This document shows, in pieces, positions 34,901 to 59,771 of a DNA stretch of 64,000 nucleotides. The DNA is from an uncultured Actinomycetes bacterium. GTDB lineage: Bacteria > Actinomycetota > Acidimicrobiia > IMCC26256 > JBBRZM01. Positions within the stretch are counted from its first letter, which is position 1. The number at the start of each line of letters is the position of its first letter. Both the position numbers and the translations under genes were made by a program. The stretch spans positions 70,193 through 134,192 of the forward strand of contig CAWEZO010000008.1 of NCBI GenBank assembly GCA_963813635.1, given 5' to 3'. The notes beneath the pieces were generated by a model that saw nothing but the letters and a program-made list of their open reading frames with translations, had not been told where the DNA came from and did no database searches.

Positions 34901-35755
34901 TTAGGCGAGGCCTGCGCCGGCGACGTCGTCGAGGCCCGTGGCGGCCTCGGTGCTCACACGCTCGAGGAACTTCAACACCGCGCGGTTGAACGCGTTGGGT
35001 GCCTCGACCATCAAACCGTGCGCGGCGCCCCGGACCTCGAAGAGCTCGGCGCCGGGAATGAGCTCGGCCAGCTCCTCGGCGTCACCGATCGGCGTGAGCG
35101 CGTCCTGCGAACCGGTGATCACGAGCGTCGGCGCGGCCAGCTTGACGAGCTCCAAGCGCAACTCGTCGGACGCATTCAGGATGGCCTGGATCTGTGAGAT
35201 GAACGGCTCCGGCGGCGATTGCAGCACCAGTCGGGCCAGCAGGTTGAGCCATACACCGAAGCGCTTGCGGAGACGCGGACCGATGAGCCAGTGCAACGAG
35301 TCCTCGGACAGCGCCGACATGCCCCGGCCGCCGCCCACTGCCGCGGCCCACTCGGCAAGCAGCTCGCGACGCCACTCGTGGTGCCGGCACGCCGTGCACG
35401 CAAGCACGACCGACCTGACGCGATCCGGGTTGCGCACGGCGATGATCTGCGCGATCACGCCGCCCATCGAGGCACCCATCACGTGGGCGCGCTCCACGCG
35501 CTCCGCATCGAGCACGGCAACCGCGTCGACGGCCATCTGTTCGAGGTCGTAGGGGCCGGACGGGCGTCCCGAGTGGCCGGTGCCACGGTTGTCGAGCGCG
35601 TAACACCGGTATTGGCGACCGAAGGCCATGCGCTGGAGCGCCCAGCCACGCGAATCGGTACCGAGACCCTGGATCATGAGGAGCGGCTCGCCGTCGCGTT
35701 TGCCCCACACGTCGTAGGCGATGTCGACGCCGTCAGCGGCTTGCAGGTGCTTCAC
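34901..35755 (-). CDS. alpha/beta-fold hydrolase
   Basis: The sequence has HVMGASMGG as the nucleophile elbow, the oxyanion-region motif LLMIQGLG, and a C-terminal GAAHGLMVE. I chose the GTG at 35753-35755 as the start. Confidence 0.8.
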   Translation of the reverse strand: MKHLQAADGVDIAYDVWGKRDGEPLLMIQGLGTDSRGWALQRMAFGRQYRCYALDNRGTGHSGRPSGPYDLEQMAVDAVAVLDAERVERAHVMGASMGGVIAQIIAVRNPDRVRSVVLACTACRHHEWRRELLAEWAAAVGGGRGMSALSEDSLHWLIGPRLRKRFGVWLNLLARLVLQSPPEPFISQIQAILNASDELRLELVKLAAPTLVITGSQDALTPIGDAEELAELIPGAELFEVRGAAHGLMVEAPNAFNRAVLKFLERVSTEAATGLDDVAGAGLA

Positions 35756-36102
35756 GAGCGGCCCCCCAGGCACGTCGCACCCTAGTGCTCGCGAGCGCGA
35801 ACCCAATGTATAGCCCACAGTGCGCGCGTGGAACGCAACGTGCCGCGACCTCGCCCGTCCAAGGGACACCGGCGCGCAAATCCCCTGATACGCGTGTCGG
35901 TCCCGGCGCCACGATGCCGCAGGGGCCGACGCTCCGAACCAGCGACCCGGGGACCACTTGGGCGGTCGCAGCTTCTTGCATTTGCAAGGATGAAGTCGCC
36001 AGATATGAGACGCTTCAGCCCGTTCTGTTGTTCATGGGCACGAGTGTCTTCCGGGCCCGGCGATTGCTGCGGGCGATTGCTGCCGGGCCCCGCCGGGCGC
36101 GG

Positions 36103-43150: not shown

Positions 43151-43186
43151 GAGACCTCTTCGTTCCAGCCCTCGGTGGGTGCCGGA

Positions 43187-43675: not shown

Positions 43676-43676
43676 G

Positions 43677-44027: not shown

Positions 44028-44077
44028 GTCGGAAGCCTACGCGTCACGAAGCAGGGACCCGACCGGCATCACGCCGT

Positions 44078-44593: not shown

Positions 44594-45444
44594 GCCGCGG
44601 CTTCCTCGGCCCGGCGCATGACGTCGAGCAGCCGTACCGCGCGTGCCGCGCTGCGCGCGTCGTGGACGCGCACCACGGAAGCTCCTCGGTCGAGCGCCCA
44701 CACAACGGTCGCCAGCGTGCCCTCCTCGCGTGCACCCGGCTCCGGCGGCTCACCGCCGGCCGCAAGCACGCGCGCGATGAATCCCTTCCGCGACGGACCG
44801 ACGAGCAGCCGCACGTCGAGCAGCGCGACCAGCTCGTCGAGCCGTGCGAGCAATTCCAAGTTGTGCGCGACCGACTTGCCGAACCCGAGACCCGGATCCG
44901 CGATCAACGACTCGCTCGCGATCCCCGCGTCACGCGCGACTGCGAGCCGCTCGACGAGGAACCGGCCCACGTCGACGACGACGTCGTCATAACGAGGGTC
45001 CTGTTGCATCGTTCGGGGCTCGCCCAGCATGTGCATGGCGACGTAGCCCGCCCCCGAGCCGCCGCTGACGCTGAGGATTTCGGGATCGAAACGGCCGGCC
45101 GAGACATCGTTGACAATCGACGCGCCGGCCTCGAGCGCGGCCGCGGCGACCGCGGCCTTCGTCGTGTCGATGCTCACCGGCACGTCGGTCTCGGCCACGA
45201 GCCCGTTGATCACGGGAATCACCCTTTGCAGCTCCTCGGCCTCGCTCACCGGCTCGGCGCCGGGACGGGTCGACTCGCCGCCGACGTCGAGGAGGTCGGC
45301 ACCGTCGGCCACCAGTTCGAGGCCGTGCCAGATCGCGGCGTCCGCGTCGAGCCAGCGGCCACCGTCAGAGAACGAGTCGGGGGTGACGTTGACGATCCCC
45401 ATGACCGCCGGCCGTCCACGACACACGTCCACCCACTGGAACAT
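44590..45444 (-). CDS. folP: dihydropteroate synthase
   Basis: The sequence contains MGIVNVTPDSFSDGG, DVGGESTRPG, SIDT, DPGLGFGK and VRVHD. Only the last 284 aa of ORF 44590-46266 belong to this gene. Confidence 0.92.
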   Translation of the reverse strand: MFQWVDVCRGRPAVMGIVNVTPDSFSDGGRWLDADAAIWHGLELVADGADLLDVGGESTRPGAEPVSEAEELQRVIPVINGLVAETDVPVSIDTTKAAVAAAALEAGASIVNDVSAGRFDPEILSVSGGSGAGYVAMHMLGEPRTMQQDPRYDDVVVDVGRFLVERLAVARDAGIASESLIADPGLGFGKSVAHNLELLARLDELVALLDVRLLVGPSRKGFIARVLAAGGEPPEPGAREEGTLATVVWALDRGASVVRVHDARSAARAVRLLDVMRRAEEAAA

Positions 45445-45554
45445 CGGTCGCAGCGTACCGGCGCAGAAACGGGAAGACGGCCGGCTGGGAACCGTTTCTC
45501 GGATCGATTTTGGCACCGATGCGACCCGATCGCAGCCGCCGGCAAGAACGAGTG

Positions 45555-46181
45555 TCAGAAACGAGCGGCCGTCTGGCCGATGAAGCTCATCGCCTCGGCC
45601 CGGGTGGCGGGGTTGTCCTTGAACAGCCCGCGCACGGCTGACGTGACCGTGATCGATCCCGGCTTTCGGACCCCGCGCATCGACATGCACAGGTGCTCGG
45701 CCTCGACGACCACGAACACGCCCGACGGCTCGAGCGCCTTGACGAGCGCGTCGGCGATCTGGGTGGTCAGGCGTTCCTGCACCTGGGGCCGATGCGAGAA
45801 ACCGTCGACGAGCCGGGCGAGCTTGGAGAGGCCGGTGATGCGGCCGTCGGCGCCGGGAATGTACGCCACGTGCGCGCGGCCGTAGAACGGGATGAGGTGG
45901 TGCTCGCACAAGCTCGCGAGCGGGATGTCGCGCACCATCACCATCTCGTCGTGGTCGGCCTCGAACATCACGGTGAGATGCCGCGCCGGGTCGTCGTGCA
46001 GGCCGGCAAACAGCTCCTTGTACATCTCCGCGATCCGTTGCGGTGTGCGGGCGAGGCCGTCGCGCTCGGGATCCTCGCCGATCGCCTCGATGATCTCGCG
46101 CACGGCGCGCTCGATGCGCGGCTTGTCGACGGACGTGTGCTCGGACTCGGGTTCGGGCAGGAGATGGACAGGATCGCTCAT
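45555..46181 (-). CDS. folE: GTP cyclohydrolase I
   Basis: The sequence contains [23 protein letters not shown] and [12 protein letters not shown]. Confidence 0.95.
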
Positions 46182-48071
46182 TGTGGCGGCCGTCGTGCCG
46201 GCGGGATGTCGCTGCTGGCGACAGCTGAAGGACGGCCGGCACCATCGGCGTCGAGATCGGATGCATGGGGCTTGACCGTCTCGAAGATGCGCATCACCTG
46301 CTCGGCTTCGAGCGTCTCGTGCTCCACCAGGTCGGCCGCGAGCCGATCGAGCACCGCCCGGTTGGTCTCGAGCACATCGCGCGCGACGTCGTGTGCCGAC
46401 TCGATGAGCCCTCGGATCTCGGCGTCGATATGCGACGCGACGCCGTCGGAGTAATCGGGTGTGGATGTGAAGTCGCGACCGAGGAACACCTCGCCGGAAG
46501 TGTGGCCGAAGCGCATCGGGCCGAGCTCGTCGCTCATCCCGTACTCGGTGACCATCTGCCGCGCGATCGTGGTGGCACGCTCGATGTCGTTCTGCGCACC
46601 GGTCGTGCTGTCGGCGAAGATCAGCTCCTCCGCGGTACGGCCCCCGAGCAGCATTGCGAGCTCGTCGGTGAGCTCGCTGCGCGTGACGAGGAACTTGTCT
46701 TCGATCGGCAGCGTGAGCGTGTAGCCGAGCGCCCGCCCCCGCGGGATGATCGACACCTTGTGCACAGGGTCGGTGTTGGGCAGCGCATGCGCGACGAGCG
46801 CATGACCGCCCTCGTGGTACGCGATCACGCGCTTCTCACGATCGGAGATCAGCCGGCTCTTGCGCTCGGGACCGGCCATCACCCTGTCGATCGACTCCTC
46901 GAGCTGTGGCATCCCGATGAGCTTCAGGTCGAAGCGCGCGGCGAGCAGCGCGGACTCGTTCATCAGGTTGGCGAGGTCGGCACCGGTGAACCCCGACGTG
47001 CGGCGCGCGATCACGTCGAGATCGACGCCCGGAGCGAGCGGCTTGCTCCTCGCGTGCACACGCAGGATCGCCTTGCGGCCCTCGAGGTCGGGCCGGTCGA
47101 CCACGATCTGGCGGTCGAAACGTCCGGGACGCAGCAGCGCCGGGTCGAGAATGTCGGGGCGGTTGGTCGACGCGAGGAGGATCACGCCGGTCTTGACGTC
47201 GAAGCCGTCCATCTCCACCAGGAGCTGGTTGAGCGTCTGCTCGCGTTCGTCGTGGCCACCGCCGAGACCCGCGCCACGATGCCGGCCCACCGCGTCGATC
47301 TCGTCGATGAAGATGATGGCGGGCGCCGCCGCCTTCGCCTGCTCGAACAGATCGCGGACGCGCGACGCGCCCACACCGACGAACATCTCGACGAAGTCGG
47401 ACCCGCTGATCGAGAAGAACGGCACGCCGGCCTCGCCGGCAACGGCCTTGGCGAGCAGCGTCTTGCCGGTGCCGGGCGGCCCGAAGAGCAGCACGCCTTT
47501 CGGGATCTTCGCTCCCATCTCGTGGAACTTGGCCGGCGACGCGAGGAACTCCTTGATCTCCTCGAGCTCCTCGACCGCTTCGTCGAGACCGGCGACGTCG
47601 CTGAACCCGACCTTCGGTTGGTCCTTGGTGACGAGCTTCGCTTTCGACTTGCCGAAGCTCATCACCCGGTTGCCGCCGCCCTGCATCTGGTTGAGCAGGA
47701 AGAAGAGGAATCCGCCGATCAGCAGGAACGGCAGGAGGCTGATGATGAGGCCCCACCACGGGTTGTCCTTCTGGCTGTTGACCTCGAACTTCTTGACCTT
47801 GGCGTCAACGACCTGCTGCGTGATCCGCTCGGTGTAGCCGTCGGGGTACTTCACGACATAGGTCGTGCCGCCGCGCGAACTCGCCTTTGATCTCGTGGCT
47901 CTTGTCGTAGAGAGTGGCCTGGGTGACGTGACGCTTCTTCAGCTCGCTCTGGAACTGGTTGAGCGTGAACTGCTTGCGGTCGTTGCCCCCACCGACCAGC
48001 TGGAGCACGACGAAGACCGCGATGACAGCCACCAGGAGGTAGAGAAGGGAACTGCGCCGGAACTTTCTCAC
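46178..48071 (-). CDS. ftsH: ATP-dependent zinc metalloprotease FtsH, single-base frameshift near 47875
   Basis: The N-terminal TM piece ([25 protein letters not shown]...KGEF) lies in ORF 47805-48071. The rest ([13 protein letters not shown]..., [15 protein letters not shown]) lies in ORF 46178-47854. Removing one C restores the frame. Confidence 0.92.
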
Positions 48072-48153
48072 GGGCTCCTCGGGATTCTGCGCGTCGCACG
48101 AGCCGGCGGGACGGCGGGGTCGTCCATCCTACCGCGCCCTTCCCGCTGCCCGG

Positions 48154-48699
48154 TCAGGCGGGCTCGGATCCTCGATACTCCGCGACATACGGCAGGTTGC
48201 GGTAGCGCTCGGCTGCGTCGAGGCCGTAGCCCACCACGAACGCCGGCGGGATCCGGAAACCGACATATCGAAGCTCGGGATCGACCTTCTGCAAGCCCTC
48301 TTTGACGAGGAGCGCGCAGACTTCGAGCGAGGCCGGGTGGCGCGCCGCAAGGTTCTTGCGCAGGTACGCGAGCGTGAGTCCCGAGTCGACGATGTCTTCG
48401 ACGATCACGACGTGCCGGCCGGTGAGATCGAGGTCGAGGTCCTTCAGGATTCGCACCACGCCGCTCGTGCGGGTGGCCGACCCGTACGACGACACCGCCA
48501 TGAAGTCGAACTCGACCGGCAGGTCGATCGCGCGCGACAGGTCGCTCATGAACATGAACGCGCCCTTGAGCACCCCGACGAGCAGTGGCGGCCGGCCGGC
48601 GTAGTCGGACGTGAGCTCCTTGCCGAGCTCCCCGATCCGCTGCTGGAGCTCTTCGGCGTCGACCACGATGCGGCCGATGTCGCGCTCGGCGTCCTTCAC
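48154..48699 (-). CDS. hpt: hypoxanthine phosphoribosyltransferase
   Basis: The PRPP motif is VVIVEDIVDSGLT, and FVVGYGLD is present. I chose the GTG at 48697-48699 as the start. Confidence 0.88.
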   Translation of the reverse strand: MKDAERDIGRIVVDAEELQQRIGELGKELTSDYAGRPPLLVGVLKGAFMFMSDLSRAIDLPVEFDFMAVSSYGSATRTSGVVRILKDLDLDLTGRHVVIVEDIVDSGLTLAYLRKNLAARHPASLEVCALLVKEGLQKVDPELRYVGFRIPPAFVVGYGLDAAERYRNLPYVAEYRGSEPA

Positions 48700-48712
48700 G
48701 GCTGCCTGCCCT

Positions 48713-49964
48713 TCATGACGCGGCCCGATCGACGCGAATCCAGAGGAAATGGCGAGTCGCCGCCCGGACCCGCACGCGACCATCGACACGGTAGCCCAGC
48801 CTCCAAATCGACTCTCCGGTGCGCGGGACCGACAGCTGCGGCGCGCCGCCGTCGTCGACTGCAAGGCTCGCTTCGCGGCCCGCGCGCTCGGCGTCGATCA
48901 CACAGGTCCAGCGGCCGTCCGGCCACGACACCGGTGCTTCACGTTCCACCCACGACTCGATGACGAAGCCCGCGGCGGCGGTACAACCGGGAAGCGGCAC
49001 CACGACGTCGTCGGCGCGTCCGTGAGCCGCCGCACTCGGGCTGACCTCCTCGCGAACCAGTAGTCCGGCATGCCGGGCGACGCGACGTCCGCCCGCGAGG
49101 TCGACGGCACGCCGTTGACCTCGCGCGACCGCAAGCACGGTGTCGATCTCATCGAGTGAGGGGGGTGGGTACCCGAGCCAGACCCGAACCGCGCGGCGCG
49201 CCAACGCGAGCGGGAGGCCGGCGAGATCTCGTGCCCGTGCCGCACCCGCGACCGGCCACGCTGCGGCACCGAGCTCGTCGAGCAGCTCGCTTTCGGAGCG
49301 CAGCACGTCGCTCTGGCGCGCGAGCACCGTGCTGAGATCGCGTCCGGCTGCCCGCTCGAGACTGGGAATGACCTCCCGCCGCAGCCATACTCGCCGAAAA
49401 GCGAGATCGTCGTTCATCGGATCGTGCACCGGGGCGAGCCCGAGCCGGGCACACAGCTCGACCGTGTCGGCGTGACGCAGGCCGAGCAGTGGCCGGACGA
49501 GCGAACCCCGGCGCGCGGCCATGCCGCCGAGCCCGGCGCGTCCGCTCCCTCGTAACAGATTGAGCAGCACGGTCTCGGCCTGGTCATCGGTCGTGTGCCC
49601 GACGAGCACGGCCGACGCGCCCGACCGTCTTCGCACCTCCTCGAGCGCGGCATACCGCGCGTCGCGGGCGCGCGCCTCGAGATTCGGACCAGGATCGACG
49701 TTGACCCGCACGCGGTCGAACACGCGCGCCGAGCGCCTCGGCAGCACTGGCGACGCGCGCGGCTTCGCCCGCGCTGTCGATTCGCAGACCGTGATCGACG
49801 TGCACGGCGACGGGGGCCAGCCCCGCATCGAGCGCCACCGCGAGGGTCGCGAGCGAATCGGCACCGCCCGAGCAGCCCACGACCACGGGAGCGACGACGT
49901 CATCGAGACCGACAAGGCACGCGCGCCACGGAGCGACCGCGCGCCCGATGCGGGTGACGACCAT
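48713..49964 (-). CDS. tilS: tRNA(Ile)-lysidine synthase, single-base frameshift near 49727
   Basis: The PP-loop VGCSGGADS lies in ORF 49584-49964. It continues as VFDRVRVNVDPGPNLEARARDARY...HTTDDQAETVLLNLLRG in ORF 48713-49915. Confidence 0.8.
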
Positions 49965-49966
49965 GT

Positions 49967-50747
49967 TCAGGGGCGCGGTTCGGGCCGGCGGTCGAGCAAC
50001 GCGCCCTGACGCACCAGCGCGAGGAGCTCGTTGCTGCCTTGCAACCCGAGCTTGCGACCGATGCGCCGCAAGCTCGCGTAGATGTTGCTGCGGCTCATCC
50101 CGAGATCCGTCGCGACGTTGGTAACCGGAGCACCGTCGGCGAGCGCCTCGAGCAGCTGCCGTTGCTTGGGTGTGAGCTCGGACAGCTTGTCGCGCGCCTG
50201 GCGGAGACGCGGCGGCGGGGCCGGCAATGACGGCACGTGCTCCAGCCGCGTGAGTCGCACCCGGGGTTCCTCACCGCTGTCGGCGACGTCCTCGTCACCG
50301 GTGCGCTCGTACCGAGCCAGCGCCTCGAGCGAATCGCGCTGCACCTGGCGGCGCAGCTCCTGCTCGGGCGGACCGTCCGGGTCGAGCACCTTCTCGAGCA
50401 CCCGCACGAGATCGGCGGGATCGAACGGCTTGGTGATGTAGTGGAGCGCGCCCTCGATGCCGCCGCGGATGCGGTGCTCGGTCTCGGTGACCGCGCTCGA
50501 CCATCACCACGGGGATGTGCGAGAGGTCGTAGTCGGCGCCGGCTTTGAGCTCCTCGAGCACGCTGAACCCGTCGACGCCGGGCATCATGACATCGAGGAA
50601 CATGGCGTCGGGTACCTCGTCGTGCACGAGTTGGAGTGCCTCGGAGCCGTTGGCCGCTGTGACAACGAGGTAGCCCGCGGCCTCGAGATTGATCTGGATG
50701 AGCTCTCGGATATCGGGCTCGTCGTCGACGACGAGGACCGTTTGCAT
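49967..50747 (-). CDS. response regulator: receiver domain, long acidic/Pro-rich linker, LuxR-type HTH; single-base frameshift near 50498
   Basis: The REC domain (MQTVLVVDDEPDIRELI...DVMMPGVDGF...VVMV) lies in ORF 50295-50747. It joins SAVTETEHRIRGGIEGALHYITKPFD and the HTH LTPKQRQLLEALADGAPVTNVATDLGMSRSNIYASLRRIGRKLG in ORF 49967-50407. Confidence 0.8.
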
Positions 50748-50757
50748 GGCTGCCAGG

Positions 50758-51856
50758 TTACCGAGCGCTCCCGGTAGCTGCGGCGGGCATGCCGACGCGG
50801 GACAGCCACGCTGCCGGCTGGGCGAGCTCGGTCATCGTGGGAAGCGACTCAGGGCCGCGCCACGCTGCGTCGACGGCGTGCGGCCCGGCTTCGCGCTCGA
50901 TCGCGGCAATGAACGCCTCGCCGACCTCGTACTGACGCATCTTCGACTCGAGGCCGAGCAGCTTGTGCAACAGCCCGGTGATGCCCCGCGCCTGCCGTCG
51001 TGCGCTGAGGACGCGCGCCATGCGCTCCTGACCGCGGACGTGCTCGCGCCCGAGCTCGTTCATCACACGATTGCCATGGCCTTCGAGCAACGACATGAGC
51101 GCCTGAACCTGCGACAGCACGCCACGCTGCTCCGGCGACGCGAGCAAGGCGACCAGACCACCTTCGTCGAGCGGGTTACGGCCATTACGCATCTCGTCGA
51201 CCACGCGGCATCAGCGCCTGGAGCACGCGCCTGGGATCAGGATCGACAATAGTGAGCGCTTGGTCGACGAGAGACAGGAAGTAGCCCTTCATCCAGGGCA
51301 CGCCTGTGAACTGCGCCCTGTGCGTGACCTCGTGGATCGCGATCCAACGGCGGAACTCACGCGGCGGGAACGCGAAGCGCTTCTCGAGCTCGAGCACGTT
51401 GGCGCCGACGTAATAGACCGCGTCGGCGTTGAGCGTGCCTGTGCCGTCGGTGGGTACGAGGAGGTCGTACTGGCCGAGCACGCGTTGCGACAGGTAGCCG
51501 AGCAGCACGCCCATCTCGGTGCCGGCGACCGCGCGCCCCACGCCTGCGACCGGACTGCGCCCCATGCGTTCGCCCATACGGCGGGTCAGCGGCGCGAGCA
51601 TCCGTCGCATCGAGGCCACGTTGGCCTCGACCCAGCCGGCCCGATCCAGCACCGCGGCCGTTGCTGCACTCGGCGAGCGCAAGCCGGTGAAATCAGCGAC
51701 GAGTGCTTCGGCTTCAACGGTGACCGCATGGAAGTCGGGTTGCAACGACTCGCCGAGGTAGGAGTTTGCGAGCGGGGCGCGTCCGGAGAAACGGCGAGCG
51801 ACGCGTTCGGCCAGCGCCCAGTCGACCGGTTCCTGTGCGGGGCCGGTGTCGGTCAT
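50758..51856 (-). CDS. zinc-dependent metalloprotease, DUF2342 family (Rv3626c-type), single-base frameshift near 51202
   Basis: The HExxH-like motif AIHEVTHRAQF lies in ORF 51185-51973. The C-terminal half (VVDEMRNGRNPLDEGGL...) lies in ORF 50758-51204. The gene sits next to tilS and hpt, as in mycobacteria. Confidence 0.7.
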
Positions 51857-51861
51857 CGTCG

Positions 51862-52068
51862 TTACCGGCCCCGGTACTTGGGGATCACGACTTTGACGCA
51901 GTAGCCGACGGCGAGCGCGAGGAGGGAGAGCACGCCCAGGAGCGCGAGCAGCGGCGCGATCCAAAAGAACCACTTGTGCTCTTCCTTGTAGTGCGTGGCG
52001 GCAGCCGCCGGCGCTGCGGTGAGGACGAGCGCCACCATCGACAGCAGTGCGACACGGATGGTCTTCAC
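51862..52068 (-). CDS. small exported/membrane protein (68 aa)
   Basis: The GTG at 52066-52068 is preceded by GGAGGGAACGAGG. The product has a signal-like VKTIRVALLSMVALVLTAAPAAAA and a TM segment WFFWIAPLLALLGVLSLLALAVGY. Confidence 0.45.
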   Translation of the reverse strand: MKTIRVALLSMVALVLTAAPAAAATHYKEEHKWFFWIAPLLALLGVLSLLALAVGYCVKVVIPKYRGR

Positions 52069-52153
52069 CCTCGTTCCCTCCGAGACGTGACGGCGACGGA
52101 AGGAATCATCGTAGAGCGGGCTCGGAGCGCGGAGCGGGTCGGGATGGACCGGC

Positions 52154-52384
52154 TCACTCGGCGAGCGGCTCACCCAGCGCCTCGGCGATGCGGCGCTTCA
52201 GATCGGGGGGCACTTCGTCGCGACACTTGGAGGCGATCACCTGGCGGAGCTCGATCTCGAAATCGAAGCCGTGCGCACACGGCGGACACTCGTCGAGATG
52301 GCGGGTGATCTGCTGTCGTCGCCAGAAGGTGAGCTCGCCGTCGAGATAGAAGTAGATCTGATGGATCGTCTCTTCGCAGTCCAT
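52154..52384 (-). CDS. rsrA: zinc-associated anti-sigma factor (RsrA/RshA-type)
   Basis: The product is 76 aa and carries HLDECPPC, the HxxxCxxC motif, plus an N-terminal Cys. It lies directly downstream of the ECF sigma gene. Confidence 0.8.
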   Translation of the reverse strand: MDCEETIHQIYFYLDGELTFWRRQQITRHLDECPPCAHGFDFEIELRQVIASKCRDEVPPDLKRRIAEALGEPLAE

Positions 52385-52393
52385 CCCGGTGTC

Positions 52394-52987
52394 CTATCCC
52401 CCCGCTCCGGCGGCTCCGGTCGCAGCCTTCGGCAGCAACCCGCGTTCCCCGGCAAAGTTCCACAACCGCTTCTGCAGCTGCTTTCTTCCGCGATGCAGCC
52501 GGCTCATGACCGTACCGATGGGGACGTCCATGATCTCGGCGATCTCCTTATAGGAGAAACCTTCGACATCGGCGAGCAGCACGGCCATCCGGAACTGCTC
52601 GGGGAGGTCTTCCAGGGCTTCCTTCACGATCGACTCGGGAATCTGGTCGAGCACGATGTTCTCGGGTGTCTGATCGGCATCGACCGCCTCGAGGCCACCG
52701 AGTCGCTTATAGAGGTAGAAGTCTTCGACGTCATCGAGCTCGGTCTGCTCCGGACGGCGCTTCTTCGCCCGGTAGGTGTTGATGAACGTGTTGGTGAGGA
52801 TCTTGTAGAGCCACGCCTTCAAGTTGGTGCCGTCCTTGAAGCCACCGAAGCCGCGGTATGCGCGGAGATACGTCTCCTGCACGAGATCCTCGGCGTCGGA
52901 CGGGTTGCGCGTCATGCGCAGCGCGGCGGAGTAGAGCGCCGACATGTACGGCATCGCGAGCTCAGCGAAGCGCGCTTGATCGGCCAT
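52394..52987 (-). CDS. sigH: ECF sigma factor, SigH/SigR type
   Basis: Region 2 reads [17 protein letters not shown] and region 4 reads [28 protein letters not shown]. The gene is paired with the ZAS anti-sigma gene. Confidence 0.85.
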
Positions 52988-53036
52988 GGCGCAACTGTAC
53001 CCATCACGCCGCTCGCAACTCTGCGCGAACCGAGCC

Positions 53037-54206
53037 TCAGCTCGGAGTCACCCTCCAGATCGCGCCGGTGGGCGAGCCGTCGTCGGTCGCGATGTAGAGC
53101 CTGCCGTCGGGGCCTTCGACCGCGCTCCGGAGCCGCGGCACCGAGCCGCCGAGATTGGCGACGAAGTTGTTGCCCGCGATGATCCCCATCGAGCTCGGCA
53201 ACATGATGCGCAGCTGCATGCCCTTGAGCACTGCGACCGCGACGGCGCCGTTCCAACCCTTCCATTGCCGGCCCGACAGGAACGTCGCGCCGGACGGCGC
53301 GATCGTGACGCCGGGGTTGCTCGGTGGTGTCAGCGAGTCGCCGGAGCGCCAGACCGCGCCGATTCCGCCCGGCCGGGTCATTGGCGTCGACTCGTCGTAG
53401 CCGCCCGCGCCGTTGTCGGGGTTCCAGCCGAAGTTGCCCGGCACGATCAAGTTGACCTCGTCATCAACGCCGGTGCCGTGCTCGACACTCAACCCCGACC
53501 CGGTACCGGGCTGGAACGCGATGCCCTGCACGTTGCGGTGGCCCCACGAGTAGATCCGGGGGTCGTACACGCCGCCGGGGTTGCCCGGAATGCCGACGCC
53601 GTTCCCGTCGACGCGCAAGATCTTGCCGGCGAGCGACCACGGGTTCTGGGGGAAGCTGCCGGTCGCGGCGTCGCCGGTGCCGACATACAAGTGGAGCGTG
53701 CCGGGCTTGAAGCGCGGCCGGCATCCCGAGTGACGCCCGGAGCTGTAGTTGATCCCGGTCACGATGTCGGTGCGGTTCGAGAGGCCGGTAACCGAGCTGT
53801 TGACGACCCACCGCACCACGCGGACGTCGGTCGAACTCCCCCTGTTCGAGGTCATGCACGCGTACAAGAAGCGATTCATCGCGAAGCCCGGGTCGATCGC
53901 GATGCCGAGCATGCCGCCTTCGCCGCCTTGCACCACGTCCGACGGTGCGCCAAGCAAGTTGATGGCGCCCCCGGGAAGACGCGCCTTGATGCGTCCGGCA
54001 CGCTCGGTAAAGAACATTGTCCCGTTCGGGATGAACGCGATGTCCCACGGATGGTCGAGACCCGTGATGTACCTGCGATTGACGCTGAGCCTCGGCGCAG
54101 GTGTCCGCGTCGCCCTGGCCGGGCCGAAGCGTTCGACTCCACAACTGACGCACGCGAGCGCGGCCACAAGGCCGACAGCGACAGTGAACGGACGAAGGCG
54201 CGACAT
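53037..54206 (-). CDS. PQQ-dependent sugar (glucose/sorbosone) dehydrogenase-family lipoprotein
   Basis: The N-terminus [22 protein letters not shown] is a signal peptide with a lipobox. Beta-propeller motifs follow: [27 protein letters not shown] and [12 protein letters not shown]. Confidence 0.8.
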
Positions 54207-54292
54207 ATTGGACTCCCTGCTCGGCGGTTCCCCCACAAAGCATCGGAAGGTCGCGGCGCGGCCTTGACCACGTATCGGAGGTCCACTGACCA

Positions 54293-54342
54293 AGCGTTTG
54301 TGCGCGAGCGCGCCGCATAGGGGCCGCTTCTGCACAAGCGCT
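54293..54342. repeat. ATAG-centred palindromic element, copy 1
   Basis: The sequence is AGCGTTTGTGC-(GCGAGCGCGCCGCATAGGGGCCGCTTC)-TGCACAAGCGCT. Its first 23 nt are identical to copy 3. It lies in the divergent gap between the PQQ-dehydrogenase gene and the membrane-protein gene. Confidence 0.8.
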
Positions 54343-54375
54343 CACTTGTGAGGGGTCCGACCTACGATCGCCCGC

Positions 54376-55790
54376 GTGTCAGCCCGAGCGGACTCCCACG
54401 CGCCCATCGAGGCGTCTGCGGTCGCGCTCGACGCACGGCGGCGTCGCCTGCTGCCGGTGCTCATGGGCGCCGCCTTCGGCGTCGTCACCTTCGCCGTGTA
54501 CACGGCCGGGAGCCGGCGCGGGCTGAGCTGGGACAGCGCCCTCACCGTGTCGTTGTTCATCACGCGCGGCAATGTCATCTATCCGTTTCTCCATCAGCAC
54601 GTGTACACGAACCACCCGCTCCTCACGTTCTTGGAGCACGTGGTCTTCGACATCACCGGCTCTCGCTCCGCGCTGGTGCTTCGCGTGTTGCCGATCACGT
54701 TCGGCGCGCTGACCGTCGCGCTGATCACGACCTGGACGACGCGGCGGTTGGGCGTGCTCGCCGGGTGTGTCACGGGGGCACTTGTCGCACTGAACCCCTC
54801 GTTCGCGTTCGAGGCCACGGAGGTTCGCGGTTACAGCCTCTTCGTGCTCGCTGCGGTCGCATCGACGATCTTGCTCATCGGTGACCCCGCGCGTCTGAGC
54901 CCGCGGCACCGGAGGGTGCTGTATGGGCTGTCACTCGCCGTTGGCGTCGGCGCTCATCTCGGCATGCTTGCCGTCCTCGCGGTCCACTTCAGTGTGCTCG
55001 CCATCGACCGCGCGCGCCGCGCGCAATTGCTGACGCCCTTCATCGTCGGATCGGCCTTCGGGCTGTTGATGTACGTCGGGCTCGTGTCCGTGATGACACG
55101 TACGACGCATCGCGACTTTCATCTGCGGTTCGCGAGCGACCTGTGGCGCGAGATGTTGGGCGGAACGCTGCTCCCCGCATGTCTGCTGACGATCGTGCTG
55201 TTGGTCGGCATCTGGGGAAGCCCCCGCCACACCGTCCTGGTCGTTCCCGCGGCCGTTCTGACGTTGCTGATGTTCACTGCGTGGCAGATCGGCCCGCAGA
55301 ACTTCTTTCCCCGCTTCTTCCTGTGGCTCGTACCGTTGGCGGCGGTCGCGATCCGCGGCCGGCGTGCGGCGGGTTCCCGTGCTTGCGGTTGTCGTGGTGA
55401 TCGCGCTCGTGCCACAGGCTCGCGACGTGTACCGCTTCCTGAGCAGGGACGAGTTCGCGAATCGCATCGGCGCCGCGATCCTGCTCTCCGAGGCCCGGCA
55501 CGGGCGGCGCGTGTGCCGCGACCGGCCCCGACTCCCAGACGCTGCTTGGCTCGCTCGACTCTGACGACTTTCACGTGATTCGCTCGGCTGGAAGCCTGAA
55601 TGGCTGTCAAGTCGTCGTGGTCGTGTCGCCGGCGCGACACCGAAATCTCATTGCGTCAGCGAGAACCACATTCCCGCACTGCTTCGTGCTGCCGGCACGG
55701 TTGCACCCGGGGTACGTGTTGTCGCGGCGACGGCTGGCCGAACCACCGCCGTCCAACTCCACCCCGTGCCTACCGGCGCGGGGCGGCTGA
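54376..55790 (+). pseudogene. polytopic membrane protein (ArnT/PMT-like glycosyltransferase fold, tentative), two single-base frameshifts
   Basis: About 10 hydrophobic segments are visible. The reading frame must move from ORF 54376 to ORF 55364 (near 55353) and then to ORF 55575 (near 55516) to reach a soluble C-terminal part, CATGPDSQTLLGSLDSDDFHVIRS. Confidence 0.5.
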
Positions 55791-55802
55791 GCGCTCGGCA
55801 GC

Positions 55803-55848
55803 CGTTTGTGCAATCAGGGCCCCTATAGGGGGCCCGATTGCACAAACG
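55803..55848. repeat. ATAG-centred palindromic element, copy 2 (near-perfect 46-nt palindrome)
   Basis: The sequence is CGTTTGTGCAATC-A-GGGCCCC-TATA-GGGGGCCC-GATTGCACAAACG. That gives roughly 20 paired positions with one bulge. It starts 13 nt after the membrane-protein stop. Confidence 0.85.
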
Positions 55849-55918
55849 CTGGGGTTGCGCCGTGGTCGCGTGCTAGCCATTGCCTGACGACCGTCGAGAC
55901 AATGCATGGAGTGCTCTG

Positions 55919-56377
55919 ATGACTGACAAGTCGGTGTTCAGCGACGACGAGTGGAGTGCCCTGCGCGACGCTCCGGCGCTCGTGACGATGGCGGCCTTCG
56001 CCGCCGGCGAGCACGGCCCGATCTCAATGATGAAAGAGGCCACCGCGAGCGCCCGCGCGATCGCACGTCCCGGTGATCGCGGCGCTGCGAACGCGCTGAT
56101 CGCCGAGCTCGCGCAGCACGCGGAGAGCAAAGAGGTCCGCCACGACGTGAAACAACATCAGCGCGCGACGATCGAGGCGACGATCGACGAGGTGCTGGCC
56201 GCCTTGCAGCCGGCGGCTGCGGCCCTGGAGAAGTTGCCGCCCGACGAGGCGGTCCAGATCGGCGCCTGGCTCGTCGACATTGCCAAGGCGGAGGCCACAG
56301 CGGCCAAGGAAGTCAACCCGGTCGAGCAGGCGACGATCGGCAAGATCGCGGCACTCTTCAACGTCACCGCGACCTGA
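55919..56377 (+). CDS. hypothetical helical protein
   Basis: From ATG 55919 the ORF reads MTDKSVFSDDEWSALRDAPALVTMAAFAAGEHGP. Composition is coding-like. I could not securely recognise a family. Confidence 0.5.
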   Translation: MTDKSVFSDDEWSALRDAPALVTMAAFAAGEHGPISMMKEATASARAIARPGDRGAANALIAELAQHAESKEVRHDVKQHQRATIEATIDEVLAALQPAAAALEKLPPDEAVQIGAWLVDIAKAEATAAKEVNPVEQATIGKIAALFNVTAT

Positions 56378-56410
56378 TTGCTGCACCGGTACGGGCGGCA
56401 GGGCGCCACA

Positions 56411-56458
56411 GCGTTTGTGCGCGAGCGCGCCGTATAGAGGCCACTTTTGCACAAACGC
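56411..56458. repeat. ATAG-centred palindromic element, copy 3
   Basis: The sequence is GCGTTTGTGC-(GCGAGCGCGCCGTATAGAGGCCACTTTT)-GCACAAACGC, with perfect 10-bp arms. It lies between the convergent 55919-56377 and 56472-57500 genes. Confidence 0.85.
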
Positions 56459-56471
56459 ACGTGGGAGCCGT

Positions 56472-57500
56472 TCAGCGTGTCGAATGAATGCGGCGAGCTC
56501 CGAGCGCGGTGAGGCCGAGCAGTACGAAGGCGAGGCCGGCGAGCGCGAGTGCGATGGTGTCGCGTCGGGAACGGTCGGTCATGCCGGTCGCCGGTAGGGT
56601 CGCGGCCGTGCTTGCGGCGGGCGTTGTGGACGGGGTCGTCGCGACCGCTTCGTTCGTCAATGCGAAGGTCGCACGCGTGTTCGCGAGGTCCGCGGTCGCG
56701 GTGACGTCGTAGGTGCCGGCGGTGGCGCTGGCGCTCGGCGTCGGTGACGTCGCGACGCCGTTTGCGTCGGTCACAGCCGTCGCCGAAGACGCGCCGTCCG
56801 CGAACGTCGCGCTCGCACCGCTGCTCGGAGCGCTGAACGTGACCGTGATCCCCTCGAGCGGTGTGCCGTCCGCGTCGGCGACCACGACGCCTAGGGGCTG
56901 CGCGAAGGCCTGATCAACAGTGGTGCTCTGCGCGGCGGTGCCGCTCGCTGTGTCGACGGTCCACGGAGTACCGAGGCTCACGCGGACGAGCTCGTGGGTC
57001 GCCGGCGCGGCGACCCACATGTGCCCGTCCGGTCCGGGAGTGGGCACCCGGGGCTGGCTATCGGGAGTCGGAAGCGGGAACTCGGTGATCGTGCCACCGA
57101 CGGTGACGCGCCCGACCTTCCCCACAACCTCCCCGAACCAGACGTTGCCGTCCCAACCGAGAGTGATGCCCGCCGGTAAGGCCCCGGCCGTCGGAACCGG
57201 GAGCTCGTCGGTCAGCACACCGCCGGTCGTCATCCGGCCGATCTTGTCGGCGCCCAACTCGGTGAACCAAAGGGCACCGTCGGCACCGAACGTGATCGAG
57301 GCCGGGGCCGCGCCCGGCGTCAGCGGAGATTCGGTCACTGTGCCGTCGGCCGTCATGCGCCCGATGTTGCTGCCGTTGATCTCGGTGAACCAGACGCCAC
57401 CGTCGGGAGCCGCGACCATGCCGGCCGGGTTACTCGCCGCGACGTTCCGCCAATGCCGTATCCGGGCGATACCACCCAGCCGCGACGAGTTCAGAACCAC
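56472..57500 (-). CDS. Vgb-like beta-propeller plus Ig-like domain surface protein with LPXTG anchor, apparently 5'-truncated
   Basis: It has repeated blades (GGVWFTEINGSNIGRMTADGTVTE, GALWFTELGADKIGRMTTGG, GNVWFGEVVGKVGRVTVGGTITEF). The C-terminus carries LPATG, a hydrophobic segment and RRIHSTR. No signal peptide is present, and a stop closes the frame at 57555. Confidence 0.6.
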   Translation of the reverse strand: MVLNSSRLGGIARIRHWRNVAASNPAGMVAAPDGGVWFTEINGSNIGRMTADGTVTESPLTPGAAPASITFGADGALWFTELGADKIGRMTTGGVLTDELPVPTAGALPAGITLGWDGNVWFGEVVGKVGRVTVGGTITEFPLPTPDSQPRVPTPGPDGHMWVAAPATHELVRVSLGTPWTVDTASGTAAQSTTVDQAFAQPLGVVVADADGTPLEGITVTFSAPSSGASATFADGASSATAVTDANGVATSPTPSASATAGTYDVTATADLANTRATFALTNEAVATTPSTTPAASTAATLPATGMTDRSRRDTIALALAGLAFVLLGLTALGARRIHSTR

Positions 57501-57607
57501 TCCACCGGCAACTACCGTGCTGCTGTGGATCGCGCGTCGCAGGGTCGGCGGTCTCTACCGGCACAAACGTCTGGCGGCGGGCTCGCGCACCTTCAACCGC
57601 TGTCGCG

Positions 57608-57820
57608 TTGCTGGTCGCGGTCGCCGCGGCGTGCGGCGGGAGTGGCAGCAGCACGCAGGACGAAGTGAATCCCGACACGGGCGAGACGTACAAGGTCGCG
57701 TCGGGCTCCAACTACTACTGGCAGGGGCCCGGCGGTGACGTCGTCGGGACCGACACGAGCGACCCGCCCGGCTACGACATGAAGCCGTTGGGGGACGTCC
57801 CGCTGAACGGCGGTTCCTGA
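57608..57820 (+). CDS. small lipoprotein-like ORF (start unresolved)
   Basis: It reads LLVAVAAACGGSGSSTQDEVNPDTGETYKVASGSNYYWQGPGG with high GC3 and a AAAC lipobox. Only a TTG start is in frame. A basic n-region (HKRLAAGSRTF) lies just upstream in another frame. Confidence 0.45.
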   Translation: MLVAVAAACGGSGSSTQDEVNPDTGETYKVASGSNYYWQGPGGDVVGTDTSDPPGYDMKPLGDVPLNGGS

Positions 57821-57854: not shown

Positions 57855-58823
57855 CTATCTGCGCGCGTGTGGGATGGCGCGGCGGCGTGCGCGGGGCCCG
57901 AGCTCGAGGAGCGTACCCAGCGCAAGGAGCGTGGCACCGAGCAGCGCGAGACCGGGGCCGGGGCCGCCCGTGGCGGGCAGCGTCCCGCTCCCACCCGAAC
58001 CTGCGGCCTCGTCAGCCGCGGGCGCGACCGCACCGGTTGTCGTTGTCGCGGTGCCGGGTGTCGTCGTGGTCGGCGGCGGCGGGGCGGGCACGAGCTCGAA
58101 CGCGCCGATGTCACACGCGTCGCCTTGCGGTCGCGTCACGCCACGCGCGTCGGTGGCCGGCGGCGGGCACCCGGTCGTCACGACATCGAGCGCGGGACTA
58201 CTCGCCGAGAGCGCCATCGTGGGCACGAGCGCCGCTGGCGAGTTGAGCGTCAGGGCGGCGAGCACGGGGTCCGCGCCGGGCACGTCGCTCGCCGCGTCAA
58301 AGACACACGAGCCTGCGTCCGCGTTGAACAAGAGGTTGAAGCCACAATCCGTGATCGGGGTGGTCGTGTCACACGCCGGGCCGGTGCTGTTCGACAGGAT
58401 CGTCGACACCACAGTGGTCACCGGGGCGTTCGGGGAGACGAATATGCCGGCGCCCGCCGTGGCCGTGTTCCCATCGATCGTCGACGACCCGATCGTGACG
58501 GTATCGGGACTGGGCGTCTGGCCAGTTGTCGCGACCACGATCCCACCACCGCGCGCGGCGGCAGCGGTGTTGCCGCTGATCGTCACGTTGGTGAGGGTCG
58601 CGCTGGTGTCGACCAGCACCATGCCGCCTCCGGTGAACCCGCCCGGGTCGGTCTGTTCGTTGTTGCTGAACGTCGAGTCCGAGATCGATGCCGTGTCGGC
58701 ACCGACGATCAAGAGGCCCCCGCCGACACTGGGCGACGTGTTCTGATCGAACCACGAGCCCGTGATCGACACGTCAATTGAGGTGACATCGGACGCATCG
58801 CACTCCCTACCTGGACCGCCCAC
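57855..58823 (-). CDS. beta-helix / choice-of-anchor-Q-type surface protein with LPXTG anchor, no signal peptide detectable
   Basis: Pectate-lyase-like repeats are present (ISDSTFSNN, LTNVTISGNTA, IGSSTIDGNTA). They are followed by DARGVTRPQGDACDIGAFE, a Thr/Pro linker, LPATGG and a TM segment. The only in-frame start after the upstream fragment is GTG 58823. Confidence 0.6.
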   Translation of the reverse strand: MGGPGRECDASDVTSIDVSITGSWFDQNTSPSVGGGLLIVGADTASISDSTFSNNEQTDPGGFTGGGMVLVDTSATLTNVTISGNTAAAARGGGIVVATTGQTPSPDTVTIGSSTIDGNTATAGAGIFVSPNAPVTTVVSTILSNSTGPACDTTTPITDCGFNLLFNADAGSCVFDAASDVPGADPVLAALTLNSPAALVPTMALSASSPALDVVTTGCPPPATDARGVTRPQGDACDIGAFELVPAPPPPTTTTPGTATTTTGAVAPAADEAAGSGGSGTLPATGGPGPGLALLGATLLALGTLLELGPRARRRAIPHARR

Positions 58824-58863
58824 ATTCTGACCCTGATCCTGCACACCAACTACCGAGCCGCCG

Positions 58864-58910
58864 TTCTGGGATGACTTTTCTACCGATACGGTCGAAAACT
58901 CATCCCGGAA
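58864..58910 (-). repeat. degenerate copy of the 14-bp-stem hairpin seen next to tRNA-Thr
   Basis: The sequence is TTCTGGGATGACTT-loop-AACTCATCCCGGAA, with two mismatches in the stem. It lies inside a roughly 120-nt block homologous to 59540-59680. Confidence 0.6.
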
Positions 58911-58956
58911 GCCGCGAGTTGTGCGCTGCCGGACGAGCGGATCGCGGGACGAGCAC

Positions 58957-59556
58957 CTATCTGCTCCCGCGGGCGATGCCGCGCCCGCGTGCGCGTGGCG
59001 CGAGCTCGAGCAGCGCGCCGAGCGCGAGCAGCGCGGCGCCGAGGAGCGCGAGGCCGTGGCCGGGACCGCCCGTTGCCGCCAACGTGCCGCTGTCATCAGA
59101 TCCCGCATTCTCACCGGTCGCCGGTCCGACGGTCGCCGGTCCGACGGTGGGCGTCGTCGTGGGCGTCGTCGTGGGCGTCGTCGTGGGCGTCGTTGTGGTG
59201 GTGGTCGGGGGCGGCGGGGTGACTGCGAGCTCGAACACGCCGACGTCGCACGCGTCACCTTGGGGTCGCGTCACGCCACGCGCGTCGGTGGCCGGTGGCG
59301 GGCAACCAGTGGTCACGGCATCGAGCGCGGGACTGGTAGCCGAGAGCGCCATCGTGGGCACGAGCGTCGCGGGCGCGTTGAGCGTCAGCGCGCTGAGCTC
59401 GGGATCCGCGCCGGTGACGTCGCTCGCGGCATCGAAGACACACGTACCGGCATCCGTGTTGAACAAGAGGTTGAACCCGACGTCGGTGATCGCGCGGCCG
59501 CGCCGGCAAGCCACGCCCGTCGAACCATCATTTGCGTGACGCCGAACGCATCGCAC
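58957..59556 (-). pseudogene. internally deleted paralog of the 57855-58823 surface-protein gene (C-terminal third only), LAATG sorting motif
   Basis: ITDVGFNLLFNTDAGTCVFDAASDV...DARGVTRPQGDACDVGVFEL aligns residue by residue with the neighbouring gene. The upstream GGPGRGCDAFGVT segment is in a different frame. The beta-helix repeats are missing. The linker is expanded to TTPTTTPTTTPTTTPTVGPATVGPATG. Confidence 0.6.
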
Positions 59557-59628: not shown

Positions 59629-59676
59629 TTCTGGGATGAGTTCTCCTACGCATACGGTCGAAAACTCATCCCAGAA
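59629..59676 (-). repeat. perfect 14-bp-stem hairpin immediately 3' of tRNA-Thr(CGU) (terminator or recombination scar)
   Basis: The sequence is TTCTGGGATGAGTT-(20-nt loop)-AACTCATCCCAGAA, 23 nt downstream of the tRNA 3' end on the minus strand. Confidence 0.7.
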
Positions 59677-59698
59677 AGCAGAGAACCGGCAACAGGGG

Positions 59699-59771
59699 AG
59701 CCGGGGAGGGGATTCGAACCCCTGACCTGCTCATTACGAGTGAGCTGCTCTACCGACTGAGCTACCCCGGC
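59699..59771 (-). tRNA. tRNA-Thr (anticodon CGU)
   Basis: A cloverleaf can be drawn: acceptor GCCGGGG/CCCCGGC, D arm GCTC-AGTCGGTA-GAGC, anticodon arm GCTCA-CTCGTAA-TGAGC, and T arm AGGGG-TTCGAAT-CCCCT. Confidence 0.95.

Follow-up and report, generated by a model that had tools for sequence, protein, structure and literature searches.

Dispersed palindromic repeats are known mainly from Proteobacteria, where their partner is an HUH transposase, the repetitive extragenic palindromic (REP)-associated tyrosine transposase or RAYT. REP/RAYT systems (REPtrons) combine short extragenic palindromes, present in many copies per genome and divisible into subfamilies, with one protein-coding gene placed between two copies of the same palindrome. 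This is the nearest analogue in architecture of the elements described here, three ATAG-centred palindromes in a 64-kb stretch of DNA (68% G+C; the window) from an uncultured member of the Acidimicrobiia. In contrast to REP/RAYT systems, the gene bracketed by such palindromes in related genomes encodes an AbiEi-type module with a Vsr-like PD-(D/E)XK nuclease and not a Y1/HUH transposase. The elements are also longer (46-50 nt), they lack a GTAG head, and their invariant part consists of the outer 9 bp and an A+T-rich centre. With a probability of about 0.6, the three window copies are solo sites of an Acidimicrobiia palindrome family that is partnered by a palindrome-bracketed AbiEi-Vsr nuclease gene, the whole forming a putative selfish system. 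A reader of the window alone could not see the candidate partner gene, which was found in related genomes.

Two further systems resemble parts of the bracketed gene. The EDxHD or Vsr-like homing endonuclease I-Bth0305I (PDB 3R3P) is a multidomain homodimer with a Vsr-like nuclease fold, and its footprint spans about 60 bp centred on a pseudopalindrome (PMC3239194). In the partner protein, the C-terminal domain resembles the catalytic domain of I-Bth0305I in fold and, weakly, in sequence. Like a selfish insert, the palindrome-gene-palindrome unit is sporadic, occurs in differing contexts and diverges faster than its flanks. Unlike a homing endonuclease gene, however, the partner gene lies outside introns and inteins, its product has an AbiEi-like DNA-binding part and a cleavage activity that is only predicted, intact palindromes stand on either side of it, and many palindromes stand alone. 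The second system is the AbiEi antitoxin of type IV AbiE modules (6Y8Q; Rv2827c, 1ZEL), which shares its two-domain fold with the first ~190 residues of the partner; AbiEi proteins and Rv2827c each bind to inverted repeats in the promoter ahead of the gene that encodes them (PMC7319586). The differences are that here the module is fused to a nuclease and that inverted repeats are also found 3' of the gene and dispersed in the genome. An adjacent AbiEii toxin gene (DUF1814 nucleotidyltransferase) was absent from L151, L152 and L153 (here and below, L numbers denote loci), where the neighbours are unrelated housekeeping or metabolic genes.

A palindrome family and its candidate partner gene

The pattern CGTTTGTGC-N26-30-GCACAAACG was searched in one genome per species across 185,579 species. 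At least 113 loci with exact arms were detected, compared with about 43 expected by chance in random sequence. Among the matches listed, about 83 are from Acidimicrobiia, Ilumatobacteraceae or unclassified Actinomycetota metagenome-assembled genomes (MAGs) and ten from other Actinobacteria; about 20 come from unrelated phyla and are consistent with chance hairpins. Several exact copies occur per genome, at least 14 in JBBRZM01, 9 in CAWJNE01 and 7 in DASVIY01. A phage origin was discarded, as just two pattern matches were found in 2.9 million viral contigs. The palindromes are certainly a REP-like repeat family. The initial annotation had proposed a REP/MITE-like or recombination-associated family, and these loci, mostly acidimicrobial and several to a genome, bear out that a family exists. 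It had also known of no described family with this consensus; the open-access subset of the full-text literature likewise yielded no description of the repeats or of a gene-repeat association, which is absence of evidence and not proof of novelty.

The interiors form subfamilies of 27 or 28 nt. The window's type is also present in JBBRZM01 and DASVIY01, with the consensus CCCAG-CGTTTGTGC-(12 variable nt)-TATAG-GAACCACTTTT-GCACAAACG-G. In this ATAG subfamily the arms, the TATAG and the right interior GGAACCACTTTT are conserved and the left interior is variable. Beyond the outer 10 bp, the consensus stem has just a few inner pairs. Often the left interior is not complementary to the conserved right one, indicating that sequence is conserved and not only pairing. 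At orthologous sites (L101 3510-3555 and L084 722-766; L099 2115 and L052) both arms have changed, from CGTTTGTGC/GCACAAACG to CGTTCGCGC/GCGCGAACG. Such paired change suggests that the elements persist and evolve in place with arm complementarity kept.

Copies favour the ends of genes. With gene positions taken from open reading frames (ORFs) filtered by G+C content at third codon positions (GC3), 32 copies lie between tandem, 17 between convergent and 2 between divergent genes. Another 26 fall inside stop-to-stop ORFs, and about 20 are next to an ORF on just one side. ORF-internal placements are in some cases due to ORFs that extend upstream of the real start, as for window copy 1. The typical distance to a stop codon is 5-30 nt. 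Copies of the asymmetric ATAG type point either way with respect to the upstream gene, without bias, which argues for a role at the DNA level. Across 93 distinct copies, the 5' flank is rich in C and the 3' flank in G, and about half of the copies have G at -1. None of the 93 has a GTAG-type head, and neither a flanking direct repeat nor a target-site duplication was found among the aligned copies.

All-against-all clustering of the ORFs around the listed matches gave one recurrent neighbour, a protein of ~300 residues with Pfam AbiEi_4 and DUF559/MTES_1575 domains, and otherwise only generic paralogue families. It is the only recurrent flanked gene among these matches, although no profile search of all ORFs for Y1_Tnp was made. 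The element touches the gene on both sides in L101, L031 (a Conexibacter MAG) and L035, and directly adjoins it in L042, L018, L067, L095 and L008 (Cryobacterium). In L084 the gene is flanked by a copy with the changed arms CGTTCGCGC...GCGCGAACG. The 5' copy is located some tens of nucleotides (10-60 in most loci) upstream of the start codon, and the 3' copy begins within or just past the last codons, often overlapping them.

The association is also seen when loci are selected by protein. A metagenome scan with a three-protein alignment produced 37 loci at 27-48% identity, 23 of them with usable flanks. Matching palindromes of 45-53 nt occur on both sides of the nuclease gene in 12 of the 23. 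As controls, 54 other long ORFs in the same loci were examined and none had palindromic flanks, the single match above threshold being a pair of tandem paralogues. The gene-palindrome link is therefore well supported statistically. The arms are specific to lineages, for example CGTTCTGGTGACGA in L140, CGTTCTTCTGACG in L131, CGTTCCTGGCG in L133 and L127, CGAACTGGCCGC in L137 and CGAGCATGTGACG in L117, with others elsewhere; many begin with CGTT. Homologues on three long contigs agree with this. In L151, GCTCGTTGTCGAC... occurs on either side of the gene, and in L152 the flanking element is CGTTGTCAC-N28-GTGACAACG, the same geometry as in the window. The L152 unit (9883-10944) lies between aspS and rarA within the conserved ruvAB-secDF-relA-hisS-aspS-alaS cluster, a clean insert in housekeeping synteny. 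L153 has GCGTTTGTG...CGCAAACGC upstream of the gene. A different palindrome (...ACCGCGATCGAC...) is also present in L153, inside the nuclease gene (10059-10105) and just past it (11025-11061), and a DDE_Tnp_1 transposase gene lies 500 nt upstream.

The unit of gene and palindromes behaves as a selfish insert, since the same unit is found in differing contexts and is more diverged than its flanks. In L127 and L133 an identity of 85.5% is confined to the region from the outer edge of the 5' palindrome through the outer edge of the 3' palindrome; the flanks are unrelated, including ~2.9 kb upstream. L130 and L133 share a flank with the unit inverted, and L132 is the positional orthologue of L133 without the 3' palindrome. 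At orthologous sites (L133/L132, L120/L129 and L115/L129) the unit is 60-79% identical, compared with 84-96% for the flanks. In a neighbour-joining tree the CGTTCC-type and CGTTCT-type units form clades and most CGTT(T/G)GT-type units fall together. The tree is star-like, and arm classes follow protein clades loosely. Many contigs that carry a homologue are just 1.1-1.4 kb long, and two that were examined end within a few bases of the stop codon, as expected if assemblies break at repeats. These short contigs were not accepted as proof of such breaks: L158 ends 1 nt past the stop and has no clear palindrome upstream.

The protein is abundant under uninformative names. At 50% identity, the representatives returned by a profile search number 16,250 when E is at most 1e-30 and 46,376 when it is at most 1e-10; their sources name them 'very-short-patch-repair endonuclease', 'AbiEi antitoxin domain-containing protein' or 'hypothetical'. 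No NCBIfam family covers the AbiEi-nuclease proteins. For P0001, a member of the L035 type with CGTTTGTGC arms, the AlphaFold model is confident (mean predicted local distance difference test score, pLDDT, 93.8; predicted template modelling score, pTM, 0.76); in it the first ~190 residues make up a complete two-domain AbiEi module, which PADLOC also matches as AbiEi with E down to 1e-37. In Foldseek searches, ~200 residues align to the AbiEi antitoxin 6Y8Q (E 1.5e-7) and to Rv2827c 1ZEL (E 7e-5), and ~95 residues to the catalytic domain of I-Bth0305I, 3R3P (E 2e-3, probability 1.00, target-normalised TM-score 0.66). Residues E210, D241, E252 and H259 do not vary among 80 homologues, and D254-G255 hardly do, in keeping with the conserved acidic and histidine residues of a Vsr-like (EDxHD) domain. 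MTES_1575 has been defined as a Vsr-family restriction endonuclease domain (PMC3710099).

The three window copies

The copies are listed in Table 1 and share the geometry CGTTTGTGC-N13-ATAG-N11-GCACAAACG, 46 nt long. In copy 1 the interior is asymmetric and of the ATAG type (GCGAGCGCGCCG-CATAG-GGGCCGCTTCT), and the right arm, GCACAAGCG, has one transition that on the + strand keeps pairing as G-U. Copy 2 has exact arms of 13 nt (CGTTTGTGCAATC/GATTGCACAAACG) around the centre CCCCTATAGGGGG and is a near-perfect palindrome, 91% complementary over 23-nt arms. Copies 1 and 3 are 90% identical; their first 23 nt are the same and the 5 positions that differ are all transitions. The positions of the three elements, the shared first half of copies 1 and 3 and the almost complete self-complementarity of copy 2 were thus described correctly at the outset. 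Close relatives of copy 2 are in L033 and L047, and copy 3 is nearly identical to the copy in L051.

The exact 9-mer or its complement occurs 7 times in the 64 kb, always within 54295-57569, where ~0.5 would be expected in random sequence. With one mismatch allowed there are 15 occurrences compared with 15.7 expected from shuffles, so that only the exact, paired occurrences stand out. The 9-mer was also considered as a DNA-uptake sequence and rejected, singletons not being over-represented. A covariance model trained on 24 family members recognises copies 1-3 at 61-68 bits (E 1e-17 to 1e-19), with 61.2 bits (E 7.6e-17) for copy 1 and 68.3 bits (E 4.7e-19) for copy 3. Copy 2 is recognised on both strands, at 56-68 bits. 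No further match below E 0.1 was found by this model in the rest of the window. A degenerate relative suspected earlier at 35785-35828 was missed by both nhmmer and the covariance model and is not upheld.

All three copies form stable hairpins of -27 to -43 kcal/mol (z -4.3 to -8.3), copy 2 being the most stable at -42.6 kcal/mol (z -8.3). The + strand of copies 1 and 3 folds better through G-U pairs. A strand-specific RNA role, hinted at by these pairs, was set aside; the orientation of the family is unbiased relative to neighbouring genes. No T-run follows copy 1, 2 or 3, whose 3' tails are CTCACTTG, CTGGGGTT and CACGTGGG. A scan of the window at Rfam gathering thresholds gave no family at the elements, only two tRNAs and a riboswitch, and in a search for promoter-like and terminator-like sites none fell on copies 1-3. 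TATAG was rejected as a promoter: any -35-like hexamer in the arm is 12 nt away and no promoter-like site was found.

A fourth site is less clear. The right arm is repeated exactly at 57561-57569, and in 57574-57590 the sequence is 94% complementary to the interior GTGCGCGAGCGCGCCGC of copies 1 and 3. Neither nhmmer nor the covariance model detects 57561-57590, which is at best a rearranged element fragment of uncertain membership. The first codon of the truncated Vgb-like ORF follows 61 nt downstream of this site. The earlier description of a remnant where this gene loses its 5' end stands as regards the exact 9-mer and the missing start of the Vgb_lyase domain; its kinship with the elements finds no echo in either model.

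Table 1. Elements and neighbouring genes in the window (positions in nt)
Feature	Position	Strand	Sequence or remark
Copy 1	core 54295-54340 (element 54293..54342)	+	CGTTTGTGC GCGAGCGCGCCGC ATAG GGGCCGCTTCT GCACAAGCG
Copy 2	core 55803-55848 (element 55801..55849)	no strand	CGTTTGTGC AATCAGGGCCCCT ATAG GGGGCCCGATT GCACAAACG
Copy 3	core 56412-56457 (element 56410..56458)	+	CGTTTGTGC GCGAGCGCGCCGT ATAG AGGCCACTTTT GCACAAACG
Probable rearranged fragment	57561..57590	no strand	GCACAAACG, TCTG, then reverse complement of copy 1/3 left interior with one mismatch
sigH-like extracytoplasmic function (ECF) sigma factor	52394-52987	-	conserved left border of variable interval
Glucose/sorbosone dehydrogenase (GSDH)	53037-54209	-	conserved left border of variable interval
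Membrane-protein frame	54376-55790	+	between copies 1 and 2; two frame changes needed, near 55355 and 55565
Helical protein, 152 aa	55919-56377	+	between copies 2 and 3; no Pfam family above cut-off
Vgb-lyase-like LPXTG-anchored surface protein, 5'-truncated	56472-57500	-	between copy 3 and fragment
tRNA-Thr(CGT)	59697-59771	-	conserved right border of variable interval

Proposed mode of action and alternatives

From the anatomy of the element and the two structural relatives we infer that the AbiEi-Vsr protein would bind as a dimer. Its two DNA-binding modules would read the invariant outer 9-bp arms, 28 bp apart, and the nuclease domains would act near the A+T-rich centre (TATAG), leaving the loosely constrained stretch between arm and centre free to vary; the invariant arms, variable stretch and A+T-rich centre fit such a dimer. 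Cutting followed by recombinational repair would then move or replace the palindrome-gene-palindrome unit at such sites, and the same process would make solo palindromes spots at which neighbouring DNA is deleted, inverted or exchanged. The route of mobility would be either transposition of the whole unit or break-induced copying into a solo palindrome, and solo copies would originate either through in-trans mobilisation or when recombination between the flanks removes the gene. A wider proposal is more tentative and falls a little short of even odds, namely that Actinomycetota harbour a very large, undescribed class of selfish elements and that the palindromes serve as their recognition sites. 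These would be units of ~1.1 kb with an AbiEi-Vsr gene between two cognate 46-50-bp palindromes, in which arms and protein co-evolve, and the stand-alone palindromes would be REP-like landing or recombination sites that shape variable islands.

Several observations weigh against reading the window copies as solo sites of a nuclease-partnered family. Neither the nuclease gene nor a remnant of it was found in the 64 kb by tblastn (E up to 10) or hidden Markov model search, so the three copies are solo and are tied to the gene by family membership only. Linkage of the ATAG subfamily to the gene depends on the partial loci L018, L067 and L114. Among the matches listed, the gene is present in ~10% of element-bearing loci, and CGTTTGTGC arms occur in 1 of the 37 protein-selected loci, so that the partnership appears as lineage-specific pairs and not as one conserved sequence. 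The protein tree, being star-like, agrees only roughly with arm classes. By sequence, the nuclease domain resembles solved structures only weakly (3r3p E 0.01, 3hrl E 0.027). In the classical homing model, insertion occurs into the cut site and the target is lost; contrary to this, both flanking palindromes of the unit are intact, and in L101 the interior of each is consistent within itself but unlike that of the other. The simple model of homing into the middle of one palindrome is not supported, as the complementary outer halves that it predicts are not seen in L101. The lack of a target-site duplication at aligned copies adds to these points.

Other explanations account for part of the data. 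The palindromes might be immobile operators of AbiEi-type factors, the 5' copy being autoregulatory and the solo copies regulon or nucleoid-organising sites; the promoter binding by AbiEi and Rv2827c (PMC7319586), the complete AbiEi module and the palindrome 10-60 nt upstream of the gene in most loci are all in keeping with this. It is nevertheless unlikely, since solo copies cluster past gene ends and not in promoters, the gene has a second copy at or overlapping its stop codon, the unit is found in unrelated surroundings and in either orientation and evolves much faster than the DNA around it, and the nuclease domain is retained with invariant catalytic-type residues. Slightly more doubtful is a role solely as factor-dependent or 'I-shaped' bidirectional terminators or as 3' stabilisers of mRNA, where RNA structure would be selected without mobility or a dedicated protein. 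The stable hairpins, the better + strand folding of copies 1 and 3, and the majority of copies lying 5-30 nt past stops in tandem or convergent gaps are what such a role would give. The intrinsic type, a G+C-rich stem with a T-run, is found at none of the window copies, and the base of the stem is A+U-rich. The 9-bp arm sequence itself, beyond its pairing, is kept across lineages while interiors differ, and the unpaired right interior is conserved. Further points against termination are the unbiased orientation, the divergent gap of copy 1, the copies upstream of the nuclease gene, the differing presence and absence among relatives and a breakpoint that adjoins an element. The initial annotation had already judged that a pure terminator role does not fit all copies, and the missing T-runs agree.

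Movement by a transposase offers another account, in which ordinary REPs or miniature inverted-repeat transposable elements (MITEs) are moved by an unseen RAYT (Y1/HUH) or DDE transposase elsewhere and the AbiEi-nuclease gene is a frequent cargo or preferred neighbour. Size, palindromy, extragenic position, multiple copies and subfamilies resemble REP, bacterial interspersed mosaic element (BIME) and MITE families, and the DDE transposase gene near the L153 unit could be cited in its favour. MITEs such as the Correia elements of Neisseria are likewise small, non-coding intergenic repeats associated with rearrangements, and their terminal inverted repeats have a counterpart in the exact arms of 9-13 nt. 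The present elements differ in that each is as a whole one fixed-length palindrome; the GTAG-type head and the target-site duplication are both missing. A DDE-transposase parent with shared ends was not found among recurrent neighbours, the DDE_Tnp_1 gene near L153 being unrelated, and no other protein family recurs beside the listed elements. Arm sequences change along with the lineage of the flanked nuclease gene, and two-sided flanking is specific to that gene (12/23 compared with 0/54). This account is accordingly improbable. Least plausible by far is an integron-like reading, with the elements as attC sites bounding gene cassettes that a site-specific recombinase captures; in its favour the conserved arms or stem bases, the variable interiors, the position at gene 3' ends and the successive single genes bracketed in the window could be adduced. 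Core motif and polarity differ, however: attC reads RYYYAAC...GTTRRRY with AAC/GTT next to the interior, and CGTTTGTGC...GCACAAACG has GTT/AAC outermost. No integrase (IntI) or other recombinase was found among nine ORFs of the 52-60 kb region scanned against Pfam or in the gene lists of L151-L157, the long contigs L151-L153 included. An attI site was not found either. Most copies elsewhere are solitary, and element orientation is mixed. The definitions of MITE, attC and terminator each fail at least one tested feature.

The nuclease partnership would thus place an architecture comparable to REP/RAYT in Acidimicrobiia and other Actinobacteria (Actinomycetota) with a different enzyme, a predicted sequence-specific DNA binder of AbiEi type joined to a Vsr-like nuclease. 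A functional link would explain tens of thousands of orphan genes, offer a second, independent path to REP-like repeats and provide a concrete cause of strain-level change in gene content at these sites. It would also supply natural nucleases with long palindromic targets that can be deduced from the sequences flanking their genes, of interest for specificity studies and tool building.

The variable interval and its surroundings

The window copies lie between conserved genes whose intervening content differs among relatives. Over window 42386-54449 the L155 sequence is 97.6% identical and includes copy 1. A second ATAG-type copy, CGTTTGTGCGTGAGCGCGCCCTATAGGAACCACTTCTGCACAAACG, follows in L155 some 105 nt later, inside the first codons of the membrane-protein frame, and similarity to the window ends ~10 nt before this second copy. 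Only ~25 first codons of the frame are kept there, and LMWPc and MIP genes that are absent from the window follow. The cut in this frame and the end of the window's Vgb-like gene near 57561 are two cases of a gene stopping at or within ~60 nt of an element. L157, a relative of 65-85% identity, keeps the tRNA-Thr and GSDH-sigH sides and differs in the 5.6 kb between them (the alignment ends at 59697); two further relatives have different genes again upstream of sigH. Given the L155 breakpoint and the differing content of L157 and the other relatives, the interval from sigH/GSDH to tRNA-Thr is, by sequence comparison, a variable island whose internal junctions have elements at them or close by. 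Both the accessory patch and the marking of its junctions by elements had been proposed from the window alone.

The suggestion that the elements bracket genes like cassettes holds in part. Single genes are bracketed in the window; movement of such genes as units was not seen, and only the nuclease gene was observed to move together with both its palindromes. In that unit the conserved half of each ATAG-type copy points outward, whereas window copies 1 and 3 have the same orientation, so that the two window genes are bracketed in a different way. In another comparison, two MAGs of 94% identity (L027 1296-1370 and L070 2613-4750) differ by a 2.1-kb segment adjoining a shared element. In L070 this segment encodes a small membrane protein and a pyridoxal phosphate (PLP)-dependent decarboxylase-like protein; no second element was found at its other end in the L027/L070 pair.

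Copy 1 is in a divergent gap, as first described; the GSDH start (54209) is 85 nt away on one side and the GTG at 54376 is 35 nt away on the other. Copy 2 begins 12 nt past the stop at 55790. Copy 3 lies in a convergent gap, 34 nt from the + strand stop (56377) and 14 nt from the - strand stop (56472). To judge from its reading frame, the membrane-protein gene is a probable pseudogene or assembly error; its match to ZIP transporters is weak and below threshold. The Vgb-like ORF covers only profile positions 95-250 of Vgb_lyase (about the first 95 are missing), with a weak Gram_pos_anchor match. The helical-protein and sigH products of the window have no exact-protein record in the assembly collection. 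After the Vgb-like gene come the fragment, a lipoprotein-like ORF, two beta-helix proteins and tRNA-Thr(CGT). The lipoprotein-like ORF (57600-57820; ...LVAVAAACGGSGSS...) is small, has a clipped signal peptide, and lies directly past the fragment, divergent from the truncated Vgb-like gene. Both genes may have lost their starts in one event.

Other palindromes occur in the window. Two tandem palindromes of ~50 nt (34785-34833 and 34847-34898) belong to a different arm class, GAACTGGCCCGCG...CGCGGGCCAGTTC with the centre AAATAG, and lie directly past the stop of an alpha/beta-hydrolase gene (34901..35869, - strand). This is the arm class that flanks the AbiEi-nuclease gene in L137. In L134 a frameshifted nuclease gene and its own palindrome adjoin a homologue of window 33.0-34.5 kb. 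Palindromes of 47-48 nt with A+T-containing arms are present at 16099-16145 (TTCTTGCGTC...GACGCAAGAA) and 59629-59676 (TTCTGGGATGAGTT...AACTCATCCCAGAA), the latter at the margin of the variable interval, 20 nt away from tRNA-Thr(CGT). Both possibly represent further arm classes of such elements.

Two paralogous surface-protein genes occupy 57855-59556 (- strand), both with Pro/Thr-rich linkers and similar C-terminal anchor-like tails, and the longer one carries a beta-helix domain. A 43-nt repeat (57855-57897 and 58957-58999) is found at their 3' ends. Elsewhere in the window, an S-adenosylmethionine (SAM) riboswitch (14987-15087, - strand, 70 bits) and a second tRNA-Thr (TGT; 21655-21728) are both ordinary.

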